A stretch of DNA of 64,000 nt, taken from a virus. Under the pieces are notes generated by a model. The model was not told the DNA's origin and did no database searches. It saw only the letters and a list, made by a program, of their open reading frames with translations. Below are positions 1,993 through 64,000 of this stretch, piece by piece. Each line of letters starts with the position of its first letter. The first letter of the stretch is position 1. A program made the position numbers and the translations under genes. The stretch spans positions 32,001 to 96,000 of the IMG/VR virus record IMGVR_UViG_3300005265_000001; one strand, given 5' to 3'.

Positions 1993-2721
1993 ATGATGGC
2001 GATTCATGTAACTATTAGTGATAAAGATGGAAAAAAGGTGGTTACTTTTGAACCATTTCAAATGCCCAAAATTAAGGTTGGAGAAAAAGTTGTATTTAAA
2101 ACTGGTGAAAGCAGAAAATATGGTGTTATTGCGAAAGTAAAAAACAATGCTATGTTTCATTATATTGAATGTGTAATGTTTGACACTTTTGTTAGGTCGG
2201 ATGTGGCAAATTCAATTAATTGGGATAGGGTTGCCGCAAAAATCTATAAGGTTAGAGGTGGAAAATCTTTTGAGGTTCCAACAATTAAAACCAAAGCAAT
2301 TGTTTTTGAATTTTCAAATGATAGTAAAAATTTTGGTTGGTTTGCCTTTCCAGAGTCTATGACTGAATATATTGATGAAAAAAATTATAAAGAAGTGGTG
2401 GCGGAAATTAATAGGGTAAGAAAAGAAATTGATACTCAAAAAGCAAAAGAAATTATTAAACTGAGAATGGGTGAATTTGATGCTTGTATTATTGATGAAT
2501 TTAATAAACCACCATTCAATCATGGGTTCCCGTGGGATGAATACAAGGCCGTTTTTCTCAAAATGACTTCTTGTCGGAATACAACGGTTGTGGTTTTCAA
2601 AGATAAAGATGTTCTGAATGTTCCCCAAAAAATTGCGGGTATTGTAATTGGGAAAGGGGGCAGAACTATTAAAGAAATACAAAAAGTTCTGGAACACAAA
2701 GTTTCAGTTAATGTTATTTAG
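1993..2721 (+). CDS. Protein with C-terminal KH RNA-binding domain
   Basis: VPQKIAGIVIGKGGRTIKEIQKVL, the KH GxxG motif. Confidence 0.7.
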   Translation: MMAIHVTISDKDGKKVVTFEPFQMPKIKVGEKVVFKTGESRKYGVIAKVKNNAMFHYIECVMFDTFVRSDVANSINWDRVAAKIYKVRGGKSFEVPTIKTKAIVFEFSNDSKNFGWFAFPESMTEYIDEKNYKEVVAEINRVRKEIDTQKAKEIIKLRMGEFDACIIDEFNKPPFNHGFPWDEYKAVFLKMTSCRNTTVVVFKDKDVLNVPQKIAGIVIGKGGRTIKEIQKVLEHKVSVNVI

Positions 2722-48230: not shown

Positions 48231-49532
48231 ATGGGTTTTGTTACAATAAATGAAGGCATAAATAAATCAATCGGAACAAATTCTAAAGATTTATTATATA
48301 TTCAAAGATTTATAAGAGATACCTATAAACCAACTTTAGAAAATATGTTAGATTCAACTAACTTAAATGGGGCTGAATCTTTTGTAATGAATTGTTCTGA
48401 ATATGATATGGTGTTTTTTAAAGTTTTGTTTAGTGTTTCAAATGCAAGCGCAAAATTTAGAATTAAATTGTATGATTTAAATGATGTTTATATTTATAGT
48501 GAACAATATACAATAAGTTCAACTGGAATTTTAGAAGATAGTTTATATGTGGGTGAATTATTAGTGGCTGATGTTAGAGGGTTTAATAAAGTTGCTATTA
48601 GATTAGATTCTGATATTACAAATGGGGGAAATGTTAAAATTTTGGGGGGTGGAATGGGAAATGATGTAATTGTGGATAAGGGATATATAATTTATGGAAA
48701 AGATTCATCCGTTGGACTTAGGGATACAGATGAATATAATAATCAAACAGATTCATGGGCATCTAAAACAGATGGATTAAGTCCTGAACGGTGGTCGGTG
48801 GGATCTGTTAAGATTTTAAATAAAGGATATGGAAATTATGGAAGAGATTCATCTGTTGGACTTAGGGATACAGATGAATATAATAATCAAACAGATTCAT
48901 GGGCATCTAAAACAGATGGATTAAGTCCTGCCCGAATAATATTTCCTGCTAATACTATTTTAAATAAGGGATATATGTATGGTGGAAGCCCAATAGATTA
49001 TTCTACTTATTATAAAGATGTAGATGAGTATAATCCAGATACATGGGTTTCAAAAATGGATATGCTTTCTCCCGCAAAAAATGGAATATTTAGCACAACT
49101 ATAATGTTGCAAAATAAAGGGTATATTGCTTATGGAACGGCCAGTGGTATTGGGGGAGTTAAAACTAACTATGAATATAATCCCGATACATGGGTAATTA
49201 AATCTGAAGCTATATCTCCTATAAGAAGTTTATGCGCAACTAATTCTGTAATAAATAAAGGATATATTACGGGGGGATGGGATGATAATCAAAATTTATT
49301 ACAAGATACAGATGAATATAATAATCAAACAGATTCATGGGTTTCTAAAACAAATTCACTATCCCCACCCCGGCGAGATGCGGGTTTATTTCCCCTTTTA
49401 AATAAAATATATTTTGTTGTTGGGGGGGATGGCACAAATTATTATAAAGATATAGATGAGTATAATCCAGATACATGGGTTTCAAAAATGGATATTATCA
49501 GCCCCGCAAGATGGGTAATTGGAACAATATAA
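48231..49532 (+). CDS. Shared adaptor + Kelch protein with recently duplicated blades
   Basis: FVTINEGINKSIG..YIQR, LNGAES; Kelch repeats. Confidence 0.75.
   Translation: MGFVTINEGINKSIGTNSKDLLYIQRFIRDTYKPTLENMLDSTNLNGAESFVMNCSEYDMVFFKVLFSVSNASAKFRIKLYDLNDVYIYSEQYTISSTGILEDSLYVGELLVADVRGFNKVAIRLDSDITNGGNVKILGGGMGNDVIVDKGYIIYGKDSSVGLRDTDEYNNQTDSWASKTDGLSPERWSVGSVKILNKGYGNYGRDSSVGLRDTDEYNNQTDSWASKTDGLSPARIIFPANTILNKGYMYGGSPIDYSTYYKDVDEYNPDTWVSKMDMLSPAKNGIFSTTIMLQNKGYIAYGTASGIGGVKTNYEYNPDTWVIKSEAISPIRSLCATNSVINKGYITGGWDDNQNLLQDTDEYNNQTDSWVSKTNSLSPPRRDAGLFPLLNKIYFVVGGDGTNYYKDIDEYNPDTWVSKMDIISPARWVIGTI
48692..48930 (+). repeat. Near-identical ~95-bp direct repeat at 144-bp period (duplicated Kelch blade)
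   Basis: gttggacttagggatacagatgaatataataatcaaacagattcatgggcatctaaaacagatggattaagtcctg occurs twice. Confidence 0.9.
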
Positions 49533-50609: not shown

Positions 50610-51881
50610 ATGTCATATATTACTATAAGAGAAGGAACCGATAAAAAAATAGCAACTTTGGAAATTACAGAAGGTTCAGATGTAATACATATCCAAAGAA
50701 TTGCTATTGATGTCTTTAATGTATATTTTGCAAATATTTTGGACCCAATTAAATTAAATGGGGCTGAATCCTTCAAAATATCTTGTGGTGATATTCCCTT
50801 TGTTAAAATAAAAGTTGGATTTGCGTCAAGTTCTGATTCTGATATTGATATTGGAGTTAAATTAGCTAATAATAATGGGGTTAGTATTGCAAAAAAAATA
50901 AATGTGAATAATACTGGTATTTTAGACCCAAACCATAATTATTATATTAGTGAAGAAGTTAGTATTGACACACTTGGATTTGATAATGTAGAAGTTATTT
51001 TATTAAGTTCTCCAACTGGTAATGTCAGAATGTGGGGGGGTGGGGAAAAAATAGATGTAACACGTGGATATGTTTTTGGTGGTGTTGATAATAATTGGGC
51101 GCAATATAATACAAATATTGAATATAGTCATGATTTGAATACATATACTTTTAAATTAAATATTCCGGTGGCGTGTGGTTATCATTCTTCTGCCAGTTAT
51201 TTGTTTAAAGGATATGTTTTGGGGGGTATTGGGTTAAATAAAAATTATGTATATGATAAAAAATCAGAAACATGGTTATCTATTGCAAATATACCCTCTC
51301 CTGATAAACGCTATTCTTGGGCAAATAATGTGGGGGGGAAATTATATTTATTATATGGAAAAGACGGTTCTAATAATTATTTAAAGTCTAATTATGAATA
51401 TAACACACAAAATGATACGTGGGTTATAAAAACAGAAGGGCCAAGCCCCGGAAGGGCTGGATTGGCGGGATTTGTTCTTAATTATTATAATTATGCTATT
51501 GGTGGTGGAACGTCTTCTGCTGTTTATGTTGATAATGATAGATATGATTATAAAACAAATTCTTGGGTATCAAAAACTAATTATCCAAGAGGAAGTTCTT
51601 CAAGATATTTTTCTGGTAGAACTATTATAAATAAAGGATATACCGTTGCTTATACAAATTATACGGATGAATATATAGATGATGTTTGGATAAATAAAAC
51701 TAATTTTCCCCCACCAAACAGGGGCCACCAAAAATCATTTTCAATAGGAAACAAGTTCTATCAAATTTATGGTGATGGGGTTAGGGATTGTGATGAATTT
51801 AATCCCCAAACTAATACATGGGCAAATAAAGCCGATGCTCCAAGCCCCGCTTTAAAAGATTCACAGGCAACACAAATTTAA
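50610..51881 (+). CDS. Shared adaptor + Kelch protein
   Basis: YITIREGTDKKIAT..HIQR, LNGAES; Kelch repeats. Confidence 0.75.
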   Translation: MSYITIREGTDKKIATLEITEGSDVIHIQRIAIDVFNVYFANILDPIKLNGAESFKISCGDIPFVKIKVGFASSSDSDIDIGVKLANNNGVSIAKKINVNNTGILDPNHNYYISEEVSIDTLGFDNVEVILLSSPTGNVRMWGGGEKIDVTRGYVFGGVDNNWAQYNTNIEYSHDLNTYTFKLNIPVACGYHSSASYLFKGYVLGGIGLNKNYVYDKKSETWLSIANIPSPDKRYSWANNVGGKLYLLYGKDGSNNYLKSNYEYNTQNDTWVIKTEGPSPGRAGLAGFVLNYYNYAIGGGTSSAVYVDNDRYDYKTNSWVSKTNYPRGSSSRYFSGRTIINKGYTVAYTNYTDEYIDDVWINKTNFPPPNRGHQKSFSIGNKFYQIYGDGVRDCDEFNPQTNTWANKADAPSPALKDSQATQI

Positions 51882-53834: not shown

Positions 53835-54023
53835 ATGAAATGGGAAACAGTCGTTGAATGGTTAGGAAAAATCTTGGGTATGGTATTGCCTGTTCTTACC
53901 CCCTCAATCAAAGATGAATTATTTTCATTTTTGAAGAAACTTCACGAAAAAGCAGTTGAAACAGACAATCCAATTGATGATTTTCTGACACAGTTTTTAC
54001 TTGATATTTTTGGAGTTGAATAA
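53835..54023 (+). CDS. Small amphipathic protein
   Basis: AGGAGG RBS before ATG 53835 (track start 53781). Confidence 0.55.
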   Translation: MKWETVVEWLGKILGMVLPVLTPSIKDELFSFLKKLHEKAVETDNPIDDFLTQFLLDIFGVE

Positions 54024-54058
54024 AATTGAATTGGGGGATTTTCCCCCAACTTAATTTT
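54024..54058 (+). terminator. Hairpin terminator
   Basis: ttggggga-ttt-tcccccaa followed by ttaatttt. Confidence 0.55.
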
Positions 54059-54074
54059 CGGAGAATTTTTAATT

Positions 54075-54395
54075 ATGCCGGATGCCGTAAATACTCAAAA
54101 TTTTGAAAAATATAGTGAATCAATTCTCGATTATTCCTTTGATTGGAGTGATTGGTTGGATTATGATACTCATGAAATAATTCAAACTTATGATTTTGAA
54201 ATAGTTGGACCTGATACAAATTTAACAGAAGTTAATAGGGATATTTCAAGTGATAGAAAAATGATTACAATTTGGGTTACAGGTGGAACACCAAAGGCAC
54301 GGTATAAAATAATTGGTAAAATTACAACAAATTCAACCCCAATAAATAGACATGATATAAGGTTTATTCGTCTTTTAATACTACCAGAAGATTAG
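54075..54395 (+). CDS. Small phage structural/adaptor protein
   Basis: LDYSFDWSDWL...IWVTGGT...Y.I...ITT motif seen in phage tail-region proteins. Confidence 0.5.
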   Translation: MPDAVNTQNFEKYSESILDYSFDWSDWLDYDTHEIIQTYDFEIVGPDTNLTEVNRDISSDRKMITIWVTGGTPKARYKIIGKITTNSTPINRHDIRFIRLLILPED

Positions 54396-54399
54396 TAAA

Positions 54400-54960
54400 A
54401 TGAAAAAGAAGATAATCGTTTTTGGCGGTCATACAACCAAAAAACCCGGTTGTTTCAGAAATGGGATAAGTGAAGTTGCCTATAATTGGCAAATGGCAAA
54501 ATTGGTTGTAAATGGTGTTGATAGTGAAGATGTTATTTTAGGTCCTGAAATTGATTTACACGAAAGAATTAAATGGATAAATGAGAACTATCCAAAAGCT
54601 AAATTAGTAATGGAAATTCATTTAAATTGTTCTGAAAATGAAAAAGCGCACGGAACAGAAGTTTTATACAATGCTATTTGGAATTTAAAATCCCGTAAAT
54701 ATGCGAAATTATTTTTAAAAAACATTTGTATCAAATTATGGGGGACAAAAAAATCTGATAATTGCAGAGGAACTAAAACATGTCGGACATTAAAAAGAAC
54801 ACTTTCATTTTTAAAACACACAAAGCCTCCGGCAATTATTACTGAAAGTTTATTTATTTCAAATAATAAAGACAGTTATTATTTGGTAAAAGGTCTTGGA
54901 TTTGAAAATATAGTTGAAGCGCATATTGATACAATTAAACAAATTTTGGATGGTGAATAA
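54400..54960 (+). CDS. N-acetylmuramoyl-L-alanine amidase (Amidase_3), putative endolysin
   Basis: GGH...E...EIHLN...GTEV...PAIITESLFISN. Confidence 0.85.
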   Translation: MKKKIIVFGGHTTKKPGCFRNGISEVAYNWQMAKLVVNGVDSEDVILGPEIDLHERIKWINENYPKAKLVMEIHLNCSENEKAHGTEVLYNAIWNLKSRKYAKLFLKNICIKLWGTKKSDNCRGTKTCRTLKRTLSFLKHTKPPAIITESLFISNNKDSYYLVKGLGFENIVEAHIDTIKQILDGE

Positions 54961-54962
54961 AA

Positions 54963-55757
54963 GTGAAATACACTTTTTATGAAACAGTTGGAGATGTTTA
55001 TGGAAATGCGGTATCAAATGCAGATGTGTATGTGTATTTATCGGGAACTACAACAGCGGCAAAGGTTTATATAGATGGATCAGCGGTGACAACAGCACCG
55101 CAAACTTCAACAGATAGTTTTGGATTTTATACTTTTCAAGTTGATGATGATGATTATAGTTATACCCAAACTTTTGATATCAAGGTTGCTAAGAGTGGGT
55201 ATGTAGATAAATGGATAAAAAATATCAATATAATTGAAGGTGGTAAATTTGTTAGATTGGATGGAAATTCTTTACCAGAGGCCGATAACACCTATGATGT
55301 GGGGGATTCAACACATCGTTTCAAGAATATTTATGCGGTTAATTTCAACGGAACGGCGTCAAGTGCTACTTATGCTGATATTGCGGAAAAATATACAATT
55401 GAAGATATTGAAAATGTGAAGGTCGGAGATGTAATTATTATTTCAGATAAAGATGAATTTGATGGAAAAGTTTCAGATGAAATTGCTTCAAATAAAGTAA
55501 TTGGTGTTGTTAGTGAAAATCCGGCATTTAAAATGAACTCGAATTTGGAAAATGGAAAATATATTGCTTTGCGTGGTAGGGTAAAATGTCGAATCTTTGG
55601 TGTTGTATCAAAGGGTGAAGAACTTGTATCTTATGTTAATGGTTGCGCTATTGGTATAAATAATGTTAAAAATTTCCTGGAATCCTATCAACCAGTGGGA
55701 AAATCATTGGAAAATAAGCGGACTTCCGAAGTTGGATTGATTGAAATAATTGTGTAA
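54963..55757 (+). CDS. Tail fibre/spike protein with C-terminal intramolecular chaperone-like domain
   Basis: YADIAEKY, VIGVVSENPAF, IALRGRVKC, KGEELV. Confidence 0.6.
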   Translation: MKYTFYETVGDVYGNAVSNADVYVYLSGTTTAAKVYIDGSAVTTAPQTSTDSFGFYTFQVDDDDYSYTQTFDIKVAKSGYVDKWIKNINIIEGGKFVRLDGNSLPEADNTYDVGDSTHRFKNIYAVNFNGTASSATYADIAEKYTIEDIENVKVGDVIIISDKDEFDGKVSDEIASNKVIGVVSENPAFKMNSNLENGKYIALRGRVKCRIFGVVSKGEELVSYVNGCAIGINNVKNFLESYQPVGKSLENKRTSEVGLIEIIV

Positions 55758-55780
55758 CATTTAAACACAATGAGGAAAAT

Positions 55781-56254
55781 ATGAATAAATCAATTGATGA
55801 ATTAATTCTTTTAATAACTACAAGTCGATATTTATCACGAAAACATTATGAGCGTTTTTTGGAAATGTTTGAAGATATCAAAAATGATAATGTTCAAACA
55901 AAATACAAAGACTTGATTATAGATTGTTATGAAAAAGACAGGGAAATGGTATCACTTTTAGTCAATATGGAGAGATATTTTGCTCAAAATATTGAGTATT
56001 ATGAAAATGATGGAAAGATTGGAATAAAAGATTTGATTGGATATAGAAATGTTATAGATAGAAAGGTGGGGGATGAGCTTTTTGAAAAATATAAAGACAC
56101 AGAGGAAATAAAAGAAATCGTAAAGGGGTTTAAGAATCCTTTTTATACTATGAAAGCCATTTTTCTTGTATTTTTGGCTTTTCAAAATTCCGGTTCACCA
56201 TATTCCAAAGGTGACAAATTTGAACTTACAAAATTATTTAGTGAAGATGAATGA
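55781..56254 (+). CDS. Hypothetical protein coupled to the radical SAM operon
   Basis: ATGA overlap with 56251. Confidence 0.65.
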   Translation: MNKSIDELILLITTSRYLSRKHYERFLEMFEDIKNDNVQTKYKDLIIDCYEKDREMVSLLVNMERYFAQNIEYYENDGKIGIKDLIGYRNVIDRKVGDELFEKYKDTEEIKEIVKGFKNPFYTMKAIFLVFLAFQNSGSPYSKGDKFELTKLFSEDE

Positions 56255-57453
56255 AACGAGATTTTTTTCAGAAAAAAGTATTAAATCGTATTCACTCGAT
56301 AGAGCTTGTAATAAGCGAAAAGTGTCAAAATGCTTGCACTTATTGTTACAGAAATCGGTTGCATAAAAAATCAAACATAATAACAGTAAATCCCAAAACA
56401 ATTGAAATTTTTATTAAAAATCTATATGAATTATTTCCCGAATTAACAAAAATCGAAAGATTTGAACTATTTGGGGGAGAACCTTTTTTAGATTACAGCC
56501 ATATATTTTCAATCTTTGAAATACTTAATAAATTTGATAATATTAAGAAAGTTGTAGTGCCCACCAATGGTAGATTACTACTATCTTTGAATAAAATTGA
56601 TAGAGAAAAATTATTAAATTCTTGGAATTTTGAGGTTGGAATATCAATGTCTATTGATGGAATAAACGGGCAAAGAAATTTATCAAATTTTGGTAGAATG
56701 TTGGGATATGAGGAAATTGAAGAGAATGATGAATTTTTTAAGAATTTGAGAGATTTACAAAAAGAAATTGGTTTTGGCGTTCATCCAATGCTATATTTCG
56801 GAAATAATCAAAATTGGGTAGAGCAAGTTAAAAAATGGGTGGAACATGGATTTATACCATATTTATTAGAAATTAGACATCCTCTAAGCAATGATGAAAT
56901 ACTTGATTCAGTGAAAAATCTTGTATTTGTGGCTAATTACATTTTTAAAAATGTTGATAAAAAACATCATAAAAGATTCAATACAATTTTCCCCATAAAA
57001 GTTCCAAGGGGGCTTGGTTGTTCAGCGTTGACAACTATCACTATTATGCCCAATGGGGATATTCCCTTTTGCCATAGAGTTATAGAACCGCCTTATGTAA
57101 TGGGGAATGTTTTGACAAAACAAATTGATTACTCTAAATTTGTAAATTATAAAACATTCGATCACCGAAACAATCCTGAATGTGTGGGTTGCCCTATTAG
57201 AAAAATATGTTCAGGGCAATGTCTTGGGGCGGCGTATGAATATTATAGAGGCTATCCTTGGTTGAATATTCCTTCAATTTGTCAATATAATTTATTGAAA
57301 TATTATGTTTTTTCAGAATTTTTTGAAATATGGAACAATTTTTTAATTGAAAATAGAGTAAATAAAAAAGATATATTGAAAGCATTGAAACGCAATAATA
57401 CAATAAAAGAAAAAATGGGAAAAATGATGAAGGAAATAAAATGTGGGATTTAA
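56251..57453 (+). CDS. Radical SAM/SPASM maturase 1
   Basis: CQNACTYC, FGGEP, SIDG; SPASM cysteines C..PNGDIPFC..GNV..CVGC....CSGQC...C. Confidence 0.92.
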   Translation: MKRDFFQKKVLNRIHSIELVISEKCQNACTYCYRNRLHKKSNIITVNPKTIEIFIKNLYELFPELTKIERFELFGGEPFLDYSHIFSIFEILNKFDNIKKVVVPTNGRLLLSLNKIDREKLLNSWNFEVGISMSIDGINGQRNLSNFGRMLGYEEIEENDEFFKNLRDLQKEIGFGVHPMLYFGNNQNWVEQVKKWVEHGFIPYLLEIRHPLSNDEILDSVKNLVFVANYIFKNVDKKHHKRFNTIFPIKVPRGLGCSALTTITIMPNGDIPFCHRVIEPPYVMGNVLTKQIDYSKFVNYKTFDHRNNPECVGCPIRKICSGQCLGAAYEYYRGYPWLNIPSICQYNLLKYYVFSEFFEIWNNFLIENRVNKKDILKALKRNNTIKEKMGKMMKEIKCGI

Positions 57454-58967
57454 ACATATATGGATTTAGCACAATAGGACCCGCAACACCCAAAGAATAT
57501 AGTATTAATTTGGGCGATTGGGAAATTATTGATATACCTTTTGATGTGGATAAAGAAGAGGCAAAAAGATATATTTCCAATTTTTTGGATAAAATAGTTG
57601 CCATTGAAATGCCCACTTCATTACAATGTAATTTGAGGTGTAAATATTGTTATATTACTAATCCGAAATATAAAAATACGGTGGTAAAATCAAGTCAAAT
57701 AGAAAAAATTATCAATAATGTTAAGAATTTGCTTCCAAACTTCAAAGAAAATTCTAAGGAAAAGATATATTTTACACCTTGGGGGGCGGAACCCCTTATC
57801 AATATTAATACAATTGAGGTAATTTATAACAAAATTAAAGAGTTCAATTATAAAAATGTCACAATGAATTTTTCCACAAATGCTACGATATTAAACGAAA
57901 AAGTAAAAGATATTCTTTATAAATTGATTGATAAGGATATAATTAAAGATATTCAAGTTTCTATTGATGGTCCACCCGATATTCAAAACTATTATAGGCC
58001 ATTTTTAAATGATTCTCCAAGTTTTGATTCTGTTGTTGAATTTGTAAAATGGATAAAAGAAATAGAAAGAGAGAAAAAGAAAAAAATTTTGCATTTTTGT
58101 TCTACCATTTATTTAAGAGACGAAAATTTTATTAATGATTGGTATAAGGCAACAGATTTTTTCTCAGATAAAGATAATGAACTATTTTTTACACAGGTTA
58201 TGCCGTCACGTATGAGTGGTGAGGATTTAACAAATGATGAAATGGTGGAAATTTTTGTTGAAGCCATGAGACAAAGCACGGATTTACTTACTAAAAAGGC
58301 TAAAAACCAAAATATTGGGTTAGTTGATTTTTATACAAATAAATTGTTTGGTATTCCTTCGGCGTGTAGTAGAACAGCATATCCTTATTGTTCCGCTTTA
58401 AATACTCAAATTGCAATTGATTTGGATGGATCATTATATCCATGTCACGGTCCTATAACAAATCCAATAAACGAAAAACCGTGGGTATGGTTTGGAAACA
58501 TTTTTGAAAAAAAGATATCATATAGAAGACTAAAAAGGGCAATTTTTTCATTATACGGTGGAACAATTTTTAAAGGGAAATGCAATGATTGTATTATTTA
58601 TCAATTAACTCGATCCCCTATTTGTTGGAGTTGTTATTCTCATAATTTGGCAGTTTCAAATGAACCTTTAACAGATAGTATTTATAGATGTTTTGCCTTT
58701 AATAAATCATTTAAATATTGGTTGATTCAAGCACTTGTATCTATTGAAAATTCTTATGTTTTTCCATTATTAACTAAAAAAATGATAGAGTTTTTGGGTA
58801 TTGAAAAAATTGAATCTAATGTAAAAAATAAGATATCATATAAAACTTCAAGTAAATATACATACGGTTATGATGGGGTTTTGGTAAATGCCTGTAAAAA
58901 AATGGAAAAAAATATTAGTTTTGGTGGATATGTTTCTGAATGGTGGCGAATGGATGATTTTAATTAA
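57441..58967 (+). CDS. Radical SAM/SPASM maturase 2
   Basis: CNLRCKYC, WGAEP, STNA, SIDGP; YCSAL..DGSLYPCH..GNI..CNDC..CWSC..C. Confidence 0.92.
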   Translation: MWDLNIYGFSTIGPATPKEYSINLGDWEIIDIPFDVDKEEAKRYISNFLDKIVAIEMPTSLQCNLRCKYCYITNPKYKNTVVKSSQIEKIINNVKNLLPNFKENSKEKIYFTPWGAEPLININTIEVIYNKIKEFNYKNVTMNFSTNATILNEKVKDILYKLIDKDIIKDIQVSIDGPPDIQNYYRPFLNDSPSFDSVVEFVKWIKEIEREKKKKILHFCSTIYLRDENFINDWYKATDFFSDKDNELFFTQVMPSRMSGEDLTNDEMVEIFVEAMRQSTDLLTKKAKNQNIGLVDFYTNKLFGIPSACSRTAYPYCSALNTQIAIDLDGSLYPCHGPITNPINEKPWVWFGNIFEKKISYRRLKRAIFSLYGGTIFKGKCNDCIIYQLTRSPICWSCYSHNLAVSNEPLTDSIYRCFAFNKSFKYWLIQALVSIENSYVFPLLTKKMIEFLGIEKIESNVKNKISYKTSSKYTYGYDGVLVNACKKMEKNISFGGYVSEWWRMDDFN

Positions 58968-58992
58968 ATTATTATTTTGAGGTGTTTGTAGA

Positions 58993-59442
58993 ATGGGTTA
59001 TACGTGGACGGATGAGACTTTAGATTCCGATGATGATATTAGAACGTTTCATGTTTCTGAATTAAGAACAAATCTTAATAATGAACGTAACAGAAGAAGT
59101 ATGACTCAATTTAGTTGGACAGATGATCCATTGGATTCAGATACTAAGATAAAAACCGTTCACATAAATGAATTACGAAATGGTTGTGATACAACACCTG
59201 TAAATACAGGGTGTTCTGCGGAAAAAGGAAGCTACTATTCCGATAATGATTCAACTGTATATTCAGATAAAGATGCTACGATTCATTCTGATGAAAATAC
59301 TGGAATAAATTCCGGAAGAGATGTTACGGTGTATAACGGGAGAGATGGGAGCTATCATAATGGATTTGATAGTGACCAATGCGGAACAGATTATGGGGGC
59401 GATGATAGTGATAAAAATAGCGGGATTCATAATGTGGGGTAA
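58993..59442 (+). CDS. Putative rSAM substrate 1: two leader-like domains + tetrad-repeat core
   Basis: Two copies of WTD..L......H..ELR, then 19 tetrads. Confidence 0.65.
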   Translation: MGYTWTDETLDSDDDIRTFHVSELRTNLNNERNRRSMTQFSWTDDPLDSDTKIKTVHINELRNGCDTTPVNTGCSAEKGSYYSDNDSTVYSDKDATIHSDENTGINSGRDVTVYNGRDGSYHNGFDSDQCGTDYGGDDSDKNSGIHNVG

Positions 59443-59445
59443 AAA

Positions 59446-59787
59446 ATGAGTTGGACAGATGACCCTCTTACAGCGGAACTTACAAAAGTAAAAACAATTC
59501 ATATAATTGAATTAAGAAATGCTATTGATGATTTAAGTGAGGGTTGTGTTTCTTATAATAGTTCTTATGATTCGGATAAAGACGCCACAGTTGATTCAAG
59601 TAAAAATAATACGGTAGATTCTACACAATATTCTGGGGCCGATTCATCTCAAAATAGTTCGGCGGATTCCACAAAAGATAATTCAGTAGATGGCACAAAC
59701 TGGAACACAGATTATTATGCTAATCATGGAACTCACCACAATTCATGGTGTTCTGGAAACTACACAGATAGGTGTATAGGATATTAA
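59446..59787 (+). CDS. Putative rSAM substrate 2: one leader-like domain + tetrad-repeat core
   Basis: SWTDDPL...KTIHIIELRN, then 20 tetrads. Confidence 0.65.
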   Translation: MSWTDDPLTAELTKVKTIHIIELRNAIDDLSEGCVSYNSSYDSDKDATVDSSKNNTVDSTQYSGADSSQNSSADSTKDNSVDGTNWNTDYYANHGTHHNSWCSGNYTDRCIGY

Positions 59788-59815
59788 ATTTAATGAATAT
59801 GATTGTTTGTAACAT

Positions 59816-59838
59816 GGGGATGTCAATCCCCTTTTTTT
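59816..59838 (+). terminator. Intrinsic terminator closing the rSAM operon
   Basis: gggga-tgtcaa-tcccc followed by a T-run. Confidence 0.7.
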
Positions 59839-59843
59839 ATGTC

Positions 59844-59854
59844 TTTATATTATT
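59844..59854 (+). promoter_or_regulatory. Candidate late-promoter motif
   Basis: TTTATATTATT about 30 nt upstream of 59884. Confidence 0.5.
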
Positions 59855-59883
59855 TTTCAAAAATTGTGAGTTAGATACTTAAA

Positions 59884-62800
59884 ATGCCCGATATTTATCC
59901 AAGTTCTCTAAATTCAAATACAAGTTTTTCTTTTAATTTGGGCGGAGATTTTTTAAAATATAGAAGCCTTACAATAGAGAGTAAGGATGTTGAAATTGAT
60001 ATTGATCCAATTATTTCAAACGTTGAATTAACATATTCTATTGAAGTATCTGATTTTTATTTGGGTTTAAGTTCTGAAATATCATTTAATTTTGTGGTTG
60101 GATTTTCTAATATAAATCCCACTTTAACAAGTTATTCTAATCTGTTTTCAGATTTGACATTAAAAGATTTTCAACTTAATTCGTATTCCAATTTATCATA
60201 TTTACTTGATGGAGATTTTTTAAAATATCGAAGTCTTGTTTTACGGGCATATAATGTAATAATCGAAGATAACACTGAAATAGAATCAAATGTAAGTGTT
60301 GATTTTGATGTAAATATAGAAAATGAAACAGATATTTTTTCTACTAATACAAACATAAATTTTCAAAATATTGATATCATTTTTCAAGCCGAAATATTAA
60401 ATTCAATAAGTCAAATAATCACTGAAATTGAGTTAATAAAATCAGTTGATTTACTTTCTACGAATACACTTTTTAGATTTGATGGAACTGCTACTGGAAA
60501 TGTGGTAATTTCGGACTTATTACAGACTCAGGCTGATTTACTATATTCTAAAATAGTAACTGGAAATGCAATTGCAAGTGAAACACTTGATTCCAATTCC
60601 AAATTATTTTATTCTGGACTTATTAACAATAGTGTTGTAATAAATGCCACAAGTTTAGGCACAAATGTAATTTTAGATTTTGTAGAATATACTGAAAAAG
60701 TTGCAAAAACCTTAAATAGTCAAACTCATTTATCTGTTTCAAGTCCTGTTATTGATAAAGTATTAAGAAATTTTATTATCCAAACCAATTCAAGCATAGT
60801 ATTTTCTTTTGTAAAAGGCATTTCAATTTCAAATAATATTTTTGAATCTGATTCTCAATTATCGTTTAATTATGCTATTGGTAAGGTTGTCTCAGATTTT
60901 CAATTAAATGTTGATTCTGATTTGTCATATTCCGGCGTGGCTACCGATATAGTAATTGATTCCGAAAAACTTGATGCGGTTTCGGAACTTAATTATGGTG
61001 GTGTTGTAACTGGAAATGTCATAAGCAACTTTTTGTTAGAGGTATCAAGTGATTTAATTTATAGTAATTTTGTAATTGATACAATAGTAAATACCATTCC
61101 TTTAATTTCAAATGTCAATTTGTTGTCTTCTTTTGTGATTGGAACGTCAATTACAGCAAATTCGATGGGATTAGATACTGAAATTGACTTTAATTATGTG
61201 GTTGGAACGGTTGTAAGAAATTTTAATTTAGATTCGGTATCTGAAATATCATTTTCAAGTGTTTTTCGTGATACTATAATAGAAGTTCAGGAATTAAATT
61301 CCAATACTTCTTTACAATTTGATTCAGTAATTATTGGAAATGTTGTTTCTAATTTTCTATTTGAAACGTTAAGTGAAATAGATTTTGGTCTATTTATTGA
61401 CAATGTTGTAAGCAATTTTAATTTAGATTCAACTTCTTATTTAGATTTTTCTAATCTTTTGATTGATACTGCCATAACACCTAATATATTAAATTCATTG
61501 GTTTCAAATGTCTTTGATTATGCGGTTGGAAAGGTTTTAAAGGATTGGTTATTACAAACTGTTTCAGATATTAACTTTCATGTTGTGGTTGGTAGTGTCG
61601 TTTCAAATTTTACGTTTGGCACTAATACTTTCTTAACATTTTTGAAAACTGTAATTGGAAATGTTGTTACAGTAGATAGTTTAAATGTTGATCTTGATAT
61701 TGATTTTAATATTGTAAAGGGGCATGTTTTAAGAAGTGGTGTTTTATCTACCAATTCCAAACTGAATTTTGAGAAGATTGTAGATGTTAGCATACCTCAA
61801 AACTCCATTGAAACAAATTGTAATATTGGTTTTGATGGTGTTGTAACTGGTATAGCAATTCAAAATAATGTTTTTGATGGGTTTGTAAATATTTTTTATG
61901 ATTCTATTAGGGTTGGAACGGTTGTAAGAAATTTTGATTTAATATCAAATTCAAATATTTTGTTTTCAAATTTAATAGTAGATGTAATAATATCAAAAAA
62001 TAATGAGATATTAAGCAATTCTGATTTATTGTATCAATCGATAGTTACTGGAAATGTGTTAATTGTAAACGAAATTGAAAGCAATTCTACTATTAATTTT
62101 CAAAATATTGCAATTGGAAAAGTAATACATTCAGATGTTACTAATGTTTATACTGATATAAATTCAACTTTTGTAATTGGAAATGTTGTTAAAGATTTTG
62201 ATTTATTGAGTGATACTACAATTTCTTTTGAAAAAATAATCATTGATACTGTAATTGACAATAATATTCAAACAACACAAACCGAAATTAACTTTGGAAA
62301 TATCGAAATATCTGTTTTCGATATTGTTTTAAATTCGGCGGCTTCTTTAATATCTATTCCTGAAATTGAAGTAGATGGAAACATAATAGAATCGGCAACA
62401 AGTCAATCTTTTCAAAACATACAAATTGAGTTTGAAATAAGTCAAATTGATTCTTTTACAAATATATTGTTCGATTTTTATATTGATAGAATTATAAAAA
62501 ATAATTTCTTAGACACTGTTTCGGAAATTTCAAATGTTTTTTATGTAGATAAGATATTTACAGATAATAAATTAGAGACAAACGGTGAAATAACTTTTGG
62601 ATTCTATGTTGATGTTGTATTAGATAACAATGTAATTACCTCAAATTCACAATTAAATAACACCTATGAATTACAATTTATTCCAAAGGCACTTGAAACA
62701 GAAGGATCAATTTCATTTAATTTTATCATAGATATTTATTTGTATTTAGATAATTTGGAAAGTTTTGTTAATTTATATATTGACATTATTCAAAAAGACT

Positions 62801-63258
62801 TTTTATTGTGGATTTATTCATTTCTTTCATATACAGGGCGGCTTGATTTTACTGAATTATGTAATATTTTCAATGTTTACAAAGAGGACAGGAAATTTTC
62901 AGTTGAAAGAGAAGATAGGACCTATCACATTTATGCTGAAACATATTCACAAGAAATTGAAATTCAAAACATTTTTAGAATCCAAAAAGAAAACAGAACC
63001 TACCATATCTATGCTGAAACATATTCACAAGAAATTGAAATTCAAAACATTTTTAGAATTGAAAGAGAAGATAGGACCTATCACATTTATGCCGATACAA
63101 TTTCCCAAGAAATTGAATTGATTGATATTTTCAAAATACCAAAAGAAAATAGGGTATTTAAGATTTTTTCGGAGAATAGAGTATTTGAAATATCCAAAAT
63201 TGATAGAATTTTTAATGTATTCAAACGGACTAAAGTTTATAAATTATTATGCAAATGA
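59884..63258 (+). CDS. 1124-aa degenerate-repeat protein, putative virion fibre
   Basis: Recurrent G.VV..F.L.S.S.I.F units similar to the N-terminal parts of 28329, 31538 and 33437. Confidence 0.6.
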   Translation: MPDIYPSSLNSNTSFSFNLGGDFLKYRSLTIESKDVEIDIDPIISNVELTYSIEVSDFYLGLSSEISFNFVVGFSNINPTLTSYSNLFSDLTLKDFQLNSYSNLSYLLDGDFLKYRSLVLRAYNVIIEDNTEIESNVSVDFDVNIENETDIFSTNTNINFQNIDIIFQAEILNSISQIITEIELIKSVDLLSTNTLFRFDGTATGNVVISDLLQTQADLLYSKIVTGNAIASETLDSNSKLFYSGLINNSVVINATSLGTNVILDFVEYTEKVAKTLNSQTHLSVSSPVIDKVLRNFIIQTNSSIVFSFVKGISISNNIFESDSQLSFNYAIGKVVSDFQLNVDSDLSYSGVATDIVIDSEKLDAVSELNYGGVVTGNVISNFLLEVSSDLIYSNFVIDTIVNTIPLISNVNLLSSFVIGTSITANSMGLDTEIDFNYVVGTVVRNFNLDSVSEISFSSVFRDTIIEVQELNSNTSLQFDSVIIGNVVSNFLFETLSEIDFGLFIDNVVSNFNLDSTSYLDFSNLLIDTAITPNILNSLVSNVFDYAVGKVLKDWLLQTVSDINFHVVVGSVVSNFTFGTNTFLTFLKTVIGNVVTVDSLNVDLDIDFNIVKGHVLRSGVLSTNSKLNFEKIVDVSIPQNSIETNCNIGFDGVVTGIAIQNNVFDGFVNIFYDSIRVGTVVRNFDLISNSNILFSNLIVDVIISKNNEILSNSDLLYQSIVTGNVLIVNEIESNSTINFQNIAIGKVIHSDVTNVYTDINSTFVIGNVVKDFDLLSDTTISFEKIIIDTVIDNNIQTTQTEINFGNIEISVFDIVLNSAASLISIPEIEVDGNIIESATSQSFQNIQIEFEISQIDSFTNILFDFYIDRIIKNNFLDTVSEISNVFYVDKIFTDNKLETNGEITFGFYVDVVLDNNVITSNSQLNNTYELQFIPKALETEGSISFNFIIDIYLYLDNLESFVNLYIDIIQKDFLLWIYSFLSYTGRLDFTELCNIFNVYKEDRKFSVEREDRTYHIYAETYSQEIEIQNIFRIQKENRTYHIYAETYSQEIEIQNIFRIEREDRTYHIYADTISQEIELIDIFKIPKENRVFKIFSENRVFEISKIDRIFNVFKRTKVYKLLCK
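62903..63120 (+). repeat. 78-bp tandem repeat, about 3 copies (RTYHIYAETYSQEIEIQNIFRI)
   Basis: ttgaaagagaagataggacctatcacatttatgc at 62903 and 63059, with an intermediate copy. Confidence 0.85.
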
Positions 63259-64000
63259 ACAGAAAAACACTAAAATTTTTGATTATTTTAATACTATTTT
63301 TGGTTGGATGCGCTCACAAAAAACCACATGATAGACCTTCCAACTATGCCCATAGGTATATAGATGGTGTGAATTTATTTGTTTTTGAATCCGAAATAAA
63401 TGATGTTGATTTATTGATTGCAAAACATATTAGAGCGGTTCGATTACCAATTAGATATGAATTTCAAACTAAAACGTGTCAATATATTGATAAATTTTTA
63501 AGTCATGGTGTTACAGTTTTATTAACTTTTGATTTAACTGAAAATGATAGAAAATTCCAAAAAGCAATTGATTTTTATTTAAAACGATACGGAAACAGAG
63601 TTTTTTATGAGATTTTTAATGAGCCTTGGGCATATAATGGAAATCCTGGTTACAAAAAATTTGATTCAACTGAACGAATTTTTGTGGAACAAACAAGATG
63701 GATTGATTATATTCATTCAAAATGTCCTAATTGTAAGACATTAAACGGTGGAATTGCTGATTTTTGTAATGATATTGAAATGGATTTATTGTTAAAATAT
63801 GTGGAAAGAGGCCACCAAGATATTTTTTCAATCCATATTTACGGATATTGTGAAAATGCTTTGATATCCAAAATAAACATGATGAAAAAAACAGGCAAAA
63901 AAATATGGATAACTGAAATCGGAACAACAGGAAACAAAGAAAATTACATAAATACATATTTTCCCAACATTGTAAAAATAGTTCAACCCGAAAAATTGAT
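63255..64000 (+). CDS. Lipoprotein glycoside hydrolase, clan GH-A (GH5-like), truncated at the window end
   Basis: Manual translation: lipobox LFLVG-C, AVRLPI, YEIFNEPW (acid/base), SIHIY, IWITEIG (nucleophile); absent from the ORF track because it has no stop codon. Confidence 0.8.
   Translation, partial: MNRKTLKFLIILILFLVGCAHKKPHDRPSNYAHRYIDGVNLFVFESEINDVDLLIAKHIRAVRLPIRYEFQTKTCQYIDKFLSHGVTVLLTFDLTENDRKFQKAIDFYLKRYGNRVFYEIFNEPWAYNGNPGYKKFDSTERIFVEQTRWIDYIHSKCPNCKTLNGGIADFCNDIEMDLLLKYVERGHQDIFSIHIYGYCENALISKINMMKKTGKKIWITEIGTTGNKENYINTYFPNIVKIVQPEKL

Follow-up and report, generated by a model that had tools for sequence, protein, structure and literature searches.

Radical SAM enzymes with SPASM domains have so far been known as maturases of bacterial peptide natural products, of a few protein cofactors and of one defence system. 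Triceptide synthases (YhhB/XyeB-type SPASM enzymes) form a link that is independent of cysteine, joining the ring of Tyr, His, Trp or Phe to a nearby residue, often Asn or Asp, at its beta-carbon. Several described systems act on larger or repetitive substrates. CrpC of Methanococcus voltae shows that a SPASM enzyme can modify a whole protein, CrpA, and not a short peptide only (PMC13692751). In the HXS antiphage system (HxsA/B/C/D), two radical SAM enzymes and a small helper mature a repeat protein as a protein (Li et al., Nat Commun 2026, PMC13128918), and the cyclopropylglycine synthases TvgB (TVGG repeats) and TigE (TIGSVS repeats) introduce one modification per short tandem repeat (PMC10878394). 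CXXX-repeat systems (target TIGR04114, maturase TIGR04115, PF27846) set tandem radical SAM/SPASM genes beside a protein with a non-repeat N-terminus followed by a core of period 4; we found no characterisation of their chemistry in the literature. Nor did we find a description of a phage system of the kind reported below, and a review of jumbo-phage genomics makes no mention of radical SAM (PMC7824862).

The locus analysed here lies in a 64-kb stretch of DNA (the window) from a viral record of 105.9 kb, estimated to be 58% complete, with a G+C content of 30%; all long ORFs of the window are on the + strand. The order from 5' to 3' is Gp77, an amidase, a tail-fibre protein, a small accessory protein, the two radical SAM enzymes rSAM-1 and rSAM-2, precursors of type A and type B, a terminator-like hairpin and a large repeat protein (Table 1). 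We put the probability at roughly 60% that the two precursor ORFs are paired substrate proteins of a conserved phage cassette with two radical SAM/SPASM enzymes, modified along four-residue repeats, kept whole and associated with the fibres.

Table 1 Features of the cassette and its flanks in the window
Feature	Position	Strand	Remarks
Fibre-tail adaptor	5' of the amidase in the cassette neighbourhood		Pfam Gp77
Tail-fibre protein, 264 aa	54963..55757	+	PHROG tail-fibre families; directly 5' of the cassette
Accessory protein, 157 aa	55781..56254	+	Small helical family fam3 (C-terminal half)
rSAM-1, 400 aa	56251..57453	+	Pfam Radical_SAM, Fer4_12, SPASM
rSAM-2, 508 aa	57441..58967	+	Radical SAM/SPASM enzyme; CX3CX2C at residues 63-70
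Precursor type A, 149 aa	58993..59442	+	Two modules, junction Cys74, 19 tetrads (59212-59439)
Precursor type B, 113 aa	59446..59787	+	One module, junction Cys34, 20 tetrads (59545-59784)
Terminator-like hairpin	59816..59841	+	6-bp stem with 4 G-C pairs, then a T run; closes the cassette
Repeat protein, 1124 aa	59884..63258	+	Directly 3' of the cassette; no family match

The 264-aa tail-fibre protein has a weak, sub-cut-off Pfam match to Peptidase_G2, an intramolecular-chaperone cleavage domain (E 5.5e-4), and the accessory protein has no Pfam, NCBIfam or PHROG family. The 1124-aa protein could itself be a fibre; the 3' end of its gene holds a young 78-bp tandem repeat (62903-63153, about three copies, 80-83% matches). 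Two Kelch beta-propeller proteins are encoded in the fibre region (48231-49532 and 50610-51881), and at another locus (L029) Kelch proteins of the same cluster adjoin the same radical SAM cassette. An ORF that extends past the end of the window (63249-63998) combines a lipoprotein-like signal (LVGC) with a Glyco_hydro_cc catalytic core, and its predicted product is possibly a secreted or lipid-anchored phage glycosidase.

Translation of the two precursor ORFs (58993-59442 and 59446-59787) gives exactly the four-residue units, or tetrads, that an initial annotation of the window had listed. Each core opens at a Cys directly preceded by Gly and continues to the stop codon without interruption, over 76 residues from Cys74 in type A and 80 residues from Cys34 in type B. 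As annotated, position 1 is D, N, Y, H, W or C in 38 of the 39 tetrads (18/19 and 20/20); the overall frequency of this class is 0.41 in the type A core and 0.45 in the type B core, and the observed count was matched by none of 100,000 shuffles of either. Position 2, which had been described as nearly always small, is indeed small or polar in 35 tetrads (S 18, N 7, G 6, A 2, T 2, V 2, Y 1, I 1), position 3 is S, T, G or D in 36, and position 4 is variable, with V/I alternating with K/R/Q in the window proteins to give an additional period of 8. Tandem Repeats Finder detected no DNA tandem repeat in either precursor gene; thus, the period is kept at the protein level. Two details of the annotation need adjustment. 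The interval that it assigned to the cores, 59209-59787, holds both of them but also takes in the N-terminal module of the type B protein (59446-59544), and the exact fit of the tetrads to the C-terminus is found in both window proteins but is not general, as core length is divisible by 4 in just 13 of 33 relatives.

After a word-based homologue search with the type B protein alone had matched only itself, relatives were sought via rSAM-2. Among 1.84 billion proteins, about 21 cluster representatives fall into the rSAM-2 family at E<1e-30, and an alignment of 13 rSAM-2 sequences (A1) served as the query for locus scans. A viral scan with rSAM-2 as a single sequence gave no match, whereas the scans with A1 recovered three useful viral loci (L003, L004 and L007) and 26 close metagenome loci (L025-L050). 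The family spans about 30 viral or metagenomic loci of uncultured phages, and the searches brought up no cultured phage that carries it. With rSAM-2 and the double N-terminal module as queries, tblastn found no match in 50,697 GenBank phages. A single peptide pattern run against 185,579 cellular species genomes retrieved only distant radical SAM enzymes with 21-27% identity, a result that does not imply absence from cells.

Clustering of the ORFs revealed two radical SAM/SPASM genes in all 30 loci. In 27 these are joined by precursor genes, one or two in number and in rare cases three; the other three loci are short contigs. A Glycos_transf_1 glycosyltransferase of about 330 aa is found in 17 of the 30, often between the two radical SAM genes, and two families of small, apparently all-helical helper proteins without a Pfam match (fam3 and fam4) occur in 8-9 loci, fam3 lying 5' of rSAM-1 in nine. 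The division into type A precursors with two modules and type B precursors with one holds across the relatives. A profile search added 16 further precursors from public protein sets, none with a Pfam domain and all those with a name being called hypothetical protein. The precursors match no Pfam, NCBIfam or PHROG family, and no notable NCBIfam match was obtained for any of 21. The precursor genes form a real family that travels with both enzymes, and their association with these enzymes is strong.

The initial annotation had proposed homologous cores as a check on the register, which proved to be clearly conserved. Period 4.0 ranks first in most of 60 scorable cores, and the period-4.0 signal of a D/N/Y/H/W/C indicator usually exceeds z>5 against shuffles; in about one fifth of the family cores period 4 is weak or absent. 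The longest unbroken registers extend over 240 residues (P0153) and 233 residues (one protein of L036), and the cores are up to about 250 aa long. When all 13,408 ORFs of the loci fetched were scanned blindly for runs of 12 tetrads, only 13 were returned, and all 13 lie in loci that had been found via the radical SAM gene. Family-wide, position 1 is D in 20%, N in 19%, Y in 14% and H in 9% of tetrads, position 2 is drawn from S/T/A/N/G, position 3 is most often T (18%), S (18%) or G (11%), and position 4 varies. Where relatives do carry DNA repeats in their cores, the repeat units (12, 24, 36, 48, 72 and 144 nt) always correspond to whole tetrads. The four-residue register is the hallmark of the family.

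The frequent glycosyltransferase raises the question of whether the repeat is a scaffold for sugars, with [D/N]-x-[S/T] tetrads as acceptors for this enzyme and the radical SAM enzymes preparing or tailoring them. Position 3 is S or T in about 45% of tetrads family-wide, in keeping with such a scaffold, but S/T at this position is no commoner after D/N than after aromatic residues, the position-3 residue being independent of the position-1 class. Moreover, N-glycosylation is impossible on Asp, and the cassette glycosyltransferase is missing from 13 other loci as well as from the window's record, where it was not found in the 58% that is represented. We regard glycosylation as the purpose of the repeat as highly improbable.

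Both enzymes are members of the radical SAM/SPASM superfamily. Pfam Radical_SAM scores above cut-off in each and SPASM just below, rSAM-1 carries the canonical SPASM motif CX2CX5CX3C and matches the TIGR04085 SPASM domain with 44 bits (cut-off 27), and alignment A1 shows seven invariant Cys in the C-terminal half of rSAM-2. The radical SAM motif CX3CX2C and a Cys-rich C-terminal SPASM region are kept over 20 and 25 family members. The two enzymes share 24% identity with each other. The best NCBIfam match of both is PapB, with 110.8 bits for rSAM-2 and 64.2 bits for rSAM-1 against a cut-off of 340, followed by weaker matches, all far below their cut-offs, to the SCIFF, QhpD, CcpM, DynA, CXXX-repeat, HxsB and YhhB maturases. 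Among solved structures, rSAM-2 is closest to CteB (PDB 5wgg) and rSAM-1 to TigE (8vpo, E 6e-9). Neither enzyme appears to have an N-terminal domain of the size of a (PqqD-like) RRE: rSAM-1 lacks any extension, and in rSAM-2 the N-terminal RRE of CteB is not present at full length, the alignment beginning at CteB residue 81 and rSAM-2 residue 39.

In the precursors, the N-terminal module is defined by the motif WTD..L..(I/V)(K/R)..H(I/V).ELR, of which the entire record contains three copies, two in the type A protein (residues 3-25 and 40-62) and one in the type B protein (module residues 1-33). The Cys at the junction of module and core never varies among 11 type A sequences and hardly does in type B. 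It coincides with position 1 of the ensuing register in 25 of 33 sequences, which suggests that this Cys acts as one more position-1 residue.

PapB and CteB being the best-matching enzymes, the invariance of the type A junction Cys might be taken to mean that only a few Cys are modified, for example the junction Cys in a PapB-type CX3N/CX2(D/E) thioether, the tetrads being an unmodified spacer. Alignments do show a core-start consensus of C-[ST]-x-[HY]-N, and 68% of the tetrads opened by Cys have H, N, Y, D or E at position 4. Several family members lack the junction Cys, however, and some have no Cys at all and yet adjoin both enzymes, as do the second precursor of L004 and the first of L027. 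In the window itself, the type A protein has K at +4 from its junction Cys, and two enzymes and a register over hundreds of residues exceed what a single staple needs. Modification restricted to Cys is therefore quite unlikely. PapB, CteB and CrpC join Cys sulfur to carbon, whereas several substrates of the phage family have none, so thioether formation cannot be the general reaction. PapB-type ranthipeptides contain several Cys-X3-Asp/Glu motifs in their cores, unlike the window proteins, in which only five core Cys are found over both proteins, each opening a tetrad, with one CX3N. The view that Cys is too scarce here for a CX3D ranthipeptide is thus strengthened by the wholly Cys-free members.

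The CXXX-repeat systems are closest in layout, sharing with the phage cassette the non-repeat N-terminus, the period-4 core and the tandem radical SAM/SPASM genes. A cultured example is provided by Erwinia phage vB_EamM_ChrisDB, in which three small ORFs with Cys-x-x-x cores stand together with two radical SAM genes, near genes annotated as virion structural or tail-assembly-like. A protein-language-model search provides a lead only: the viral clusters closest to both window proteins have PF27846 in 13-52% of their members (scores 0.79-0.81). The two systems differ in that position 1 of the window tetrads is D/N/Y/H, Cys opening only 5 of 39. Searched at E<=10, the record yields no match to the TIGR04114 target model, the TIGR04115 maturase model reaches 62.3 bits with rSAM-2 and 33.3 bits with rSAM-1 against a cut-off of 350, and comparison of the type B profile with a ChrisDB Cys-repeat protein detected no homology of the N-terminal parts (hhalign probability 0.4%). 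On the enzyme side, similarity to ChrisDB gp183 is at the superfamily level only (18% identity). Because these sequence-model tests fail, we call the phage cassette a Cys-poor counterpart of the CXXX-repeat systems by architecture and not a member. In the ChrisDB locus (L114), an unannotated ORF at 2139-2522 (+) encodes a 127-aa Cys-x-x-x repeat protein paralogous to gp187; gp188, annotated across it on the opposite strand (2276-2533), is probably a mis-call.

The phage cassette likewise shares with the HXS system its two radical SAM enzymes, a small helper and a repeat-bearing protein, but it is phage-borne, and in place of His-Xaa-Ser repeats it has tens of copies of a period-4 repeat with D/N/Y/H at position 1; the HxsB model TIGR03978 gives 46-50 bits with the window enzymes (cut-off 370). 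The tig cluster also has two radical SAM enzymes, and TigE is the best solved match of rSAM-1. The defining feature of TvgB and TigE is an invariant GYW motif, which provides a ligand to auxiliary cluster I (PMC10878394). We discarded the identification of rSAM-1 as a cyclopropylglycine synthase, as the corresponding column is not conserved in 20 relatives and reads GYPW in rSAM-1. The substrates differ as well: Val/Ile occupies no conserved repeat position in the phage family, V making up 11-15% of position 4 family-wide. The residue classes linked in triceptides are the same as those that fill position 1 here, although the triceptide motif is three residues long in contrast to the four-residue register. 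In the triceptide motif, aromatic-X-X, the third residue needs a beta-carbon; in the phage family, 14% of tetrads with an aromatic residue at position 1 have Gly two places further on. The YhhB model scores 56 and 40 bits with the window enzymes (cut-off 445).

What the enzymes do to the repeats is constrained by this evidence. With precursors and two radical SAM/SPASM genes occurring together in 27 of 30 loci, action of the enzymes on the repeat is the most economical reading, and a Cys-independent reaction on the tetrads is, judging from the sequences, most likely; that the modification falls at tetrad positions is plausible. Asp, Asn, Tyr, His, Trp and Cys all present a beta-CH2 beside an sp2 centre or sulfur, and the related SPASM enzymes PapB, QhpD, NxxcB, DynA and DarE abstract hydrogen at such beta-CH2 sites. 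By analogy, position 1 would be the most plausible site of hydrogen abstraction. Among the reactions suggested by the initial annotation, cross-linking of residues i and i+4 in pairs does not hold up as a family rule: alternation of aromatic with acid or amide residues at successive positions 1 is weak (z ~2) family-wide, and we dropped pairwise i/i+4 cyclophane links on the same ground. The modification of every fourth residue and the rigid rod that the annotation envisaged are conjectural, as is the type of chemistry.

A polar repeat of period 4 and 8 in which positions 2 and 3 are small and position 4 is hydrophobic in alternation, sitting in a tail-fibre module, could also be an unmodified structural element of a fibre, such as a narrow polar beta-helix, a turn spiral or a metal-binding ladder, while the enzymes act elsewhere; every residue type found at position 1 could bind a metal or form hydrogen bonds. 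The precursors nevertheless co-occur tightly with both enzymes, and the loci share no other candidate substrate. AlphaFold2 gave a mean pLDDT of 47 for the type B protein alone and 57 with an alignment of 48 sequences, in which the core is modelled as one long low-confidence helix. Neither these two runs nor the Atlas models yield a confident core fold, and thus the possibility that the core folds as an ordinary beta-solenoid, which the initial annotation had named as its counter-case, finds no support in these models. Sequence searches of the PDB with a long relative and with a family profile found nothing meaningful and matched no solved structure. We consider an unmodified structural repeat very unlikely.

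Several lines of evidence bear on whether the product is a peptide or a protein. A leader followed by a hypervariable core beside SPASM maturases is the layout of a classical RiPP, the nearest enzyme families (PapB, SCIFF/CteB and CcpM) are RiPP maturases, and among close relatives the N-termini are kept while the cores diverge strongly. If the cassette were a phage-encoded RiPP pathway, the module would be cut off as a leader and the core released, perhaps as a bacteriocin, a signal or an anti-defence factor. The genes for leader removal and export that usually stand beside a RiPP precursor are, however, absent from the gene families shared by the 30 loci (0/30 with a peptidase or transporter), and Pfam and PHROG searches of positions 54000-64000 of the window likewise identified neither. 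Cores of up to about 250 aa speak against release as a peptide, as do domains fused to the C-terminus: in an L003 precursor a Hint domain (PF05203, E 2.6e-9) follows directly after the repeats, and an L030 precursor ends in a glycine-rich domain (PF21722). The cassette also sits within late tail-gene blocks; tail-fibre genes adjoin it in the window, in L004 and in L035, whereas some loci have no recognisable tail gene and one group adjoins a transposase. Finally, the module itself is found outside the precursors. P0168, a 945-aa BACON/FN3 protein from a JGI metagenome, carries (F/W)TDDPL...IK..HI.(E/Q)LR three times at its C-terminus and has no tetrad core, indicating that the presumed leader is a more widely used small module. 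An Atlas structure search, taken as a lead only, aligned residues 1-84 of the type A protein with parts of FN3/Peptidase_S74 fibre-type proteins (TM ~0.42). A cleaved and exported peptide is therefore unlikely, and a modified protein is instead what core length, fusion to other domains, the missing peptidase and exporter genes and the location in a tail module point to. Association with fibres or virions is plausible, from gene position and domain fusions.

We propose that in the paired-substrate cassette each enzyme engages the conserved N-terminal helical module and then acts repeatedly along the tetrads, most likely at or beside position 1, in a general reaction that may be C-C, C-O or C-N cross-linking, desaturation or epimerisation. 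The product would probably keep its N-terminal module as a modified, extended protein on the tail fibres, in many relatives perhaps also glycosylated, rather than a cleaved, exported peptide. More tentatively, the enzyme pair may perform a novel Cys-independent reaction once in every four residues, at the beta-carbon of Asp/Asn/Tyr/His and along proteins of tens to hundreds of residues, and so produce a covalently stapled or rewritten fibre component of the virion; this is possible, and RiPP-type chemistry would then serve as a structural post-translational modification of the virus particle. With a cassette conserved in phages and substrates that are long, strictly periodic and often Cys-free, confirmation would add a new reaction or substrate logic to the radical SAM/SPASM class and would mean that viruses chemically tailor their own proteins, probably those of host recognition. 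Should the products be located on fibres, host range could be affected, as could the stability of the particles in anoxic habitats. The strict register offers a clean experimental handle, since the same mass or stereochemical change is expected per tetrad, and the window's short substrates (113 and 149 aa) lend themselves to such tests.

The surroundings of the cassette vary among the relatives. L030 (10067-11098) and L035 (10725-11723) each have a third radical-SAM-like gene 3' of the cassette, which is shorter (333-344 aa) and matches phrog_1802 weakly. In one subgroup (L026-L028, L035 and L039) a Metallophos (calcineurin-like phosphoesterase) gene and an ORF for a coiled coil of 54-62 aa regularly follow 3' of the precursors. 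Five activated-sludge contigs (L041-L044 and L048) carry a variant cassette with a single 225-aa precursor and different small helper genes, one of which contains a poly-Gln stretch that differs in length; 5' of this variant, L042 has a transposase gene.
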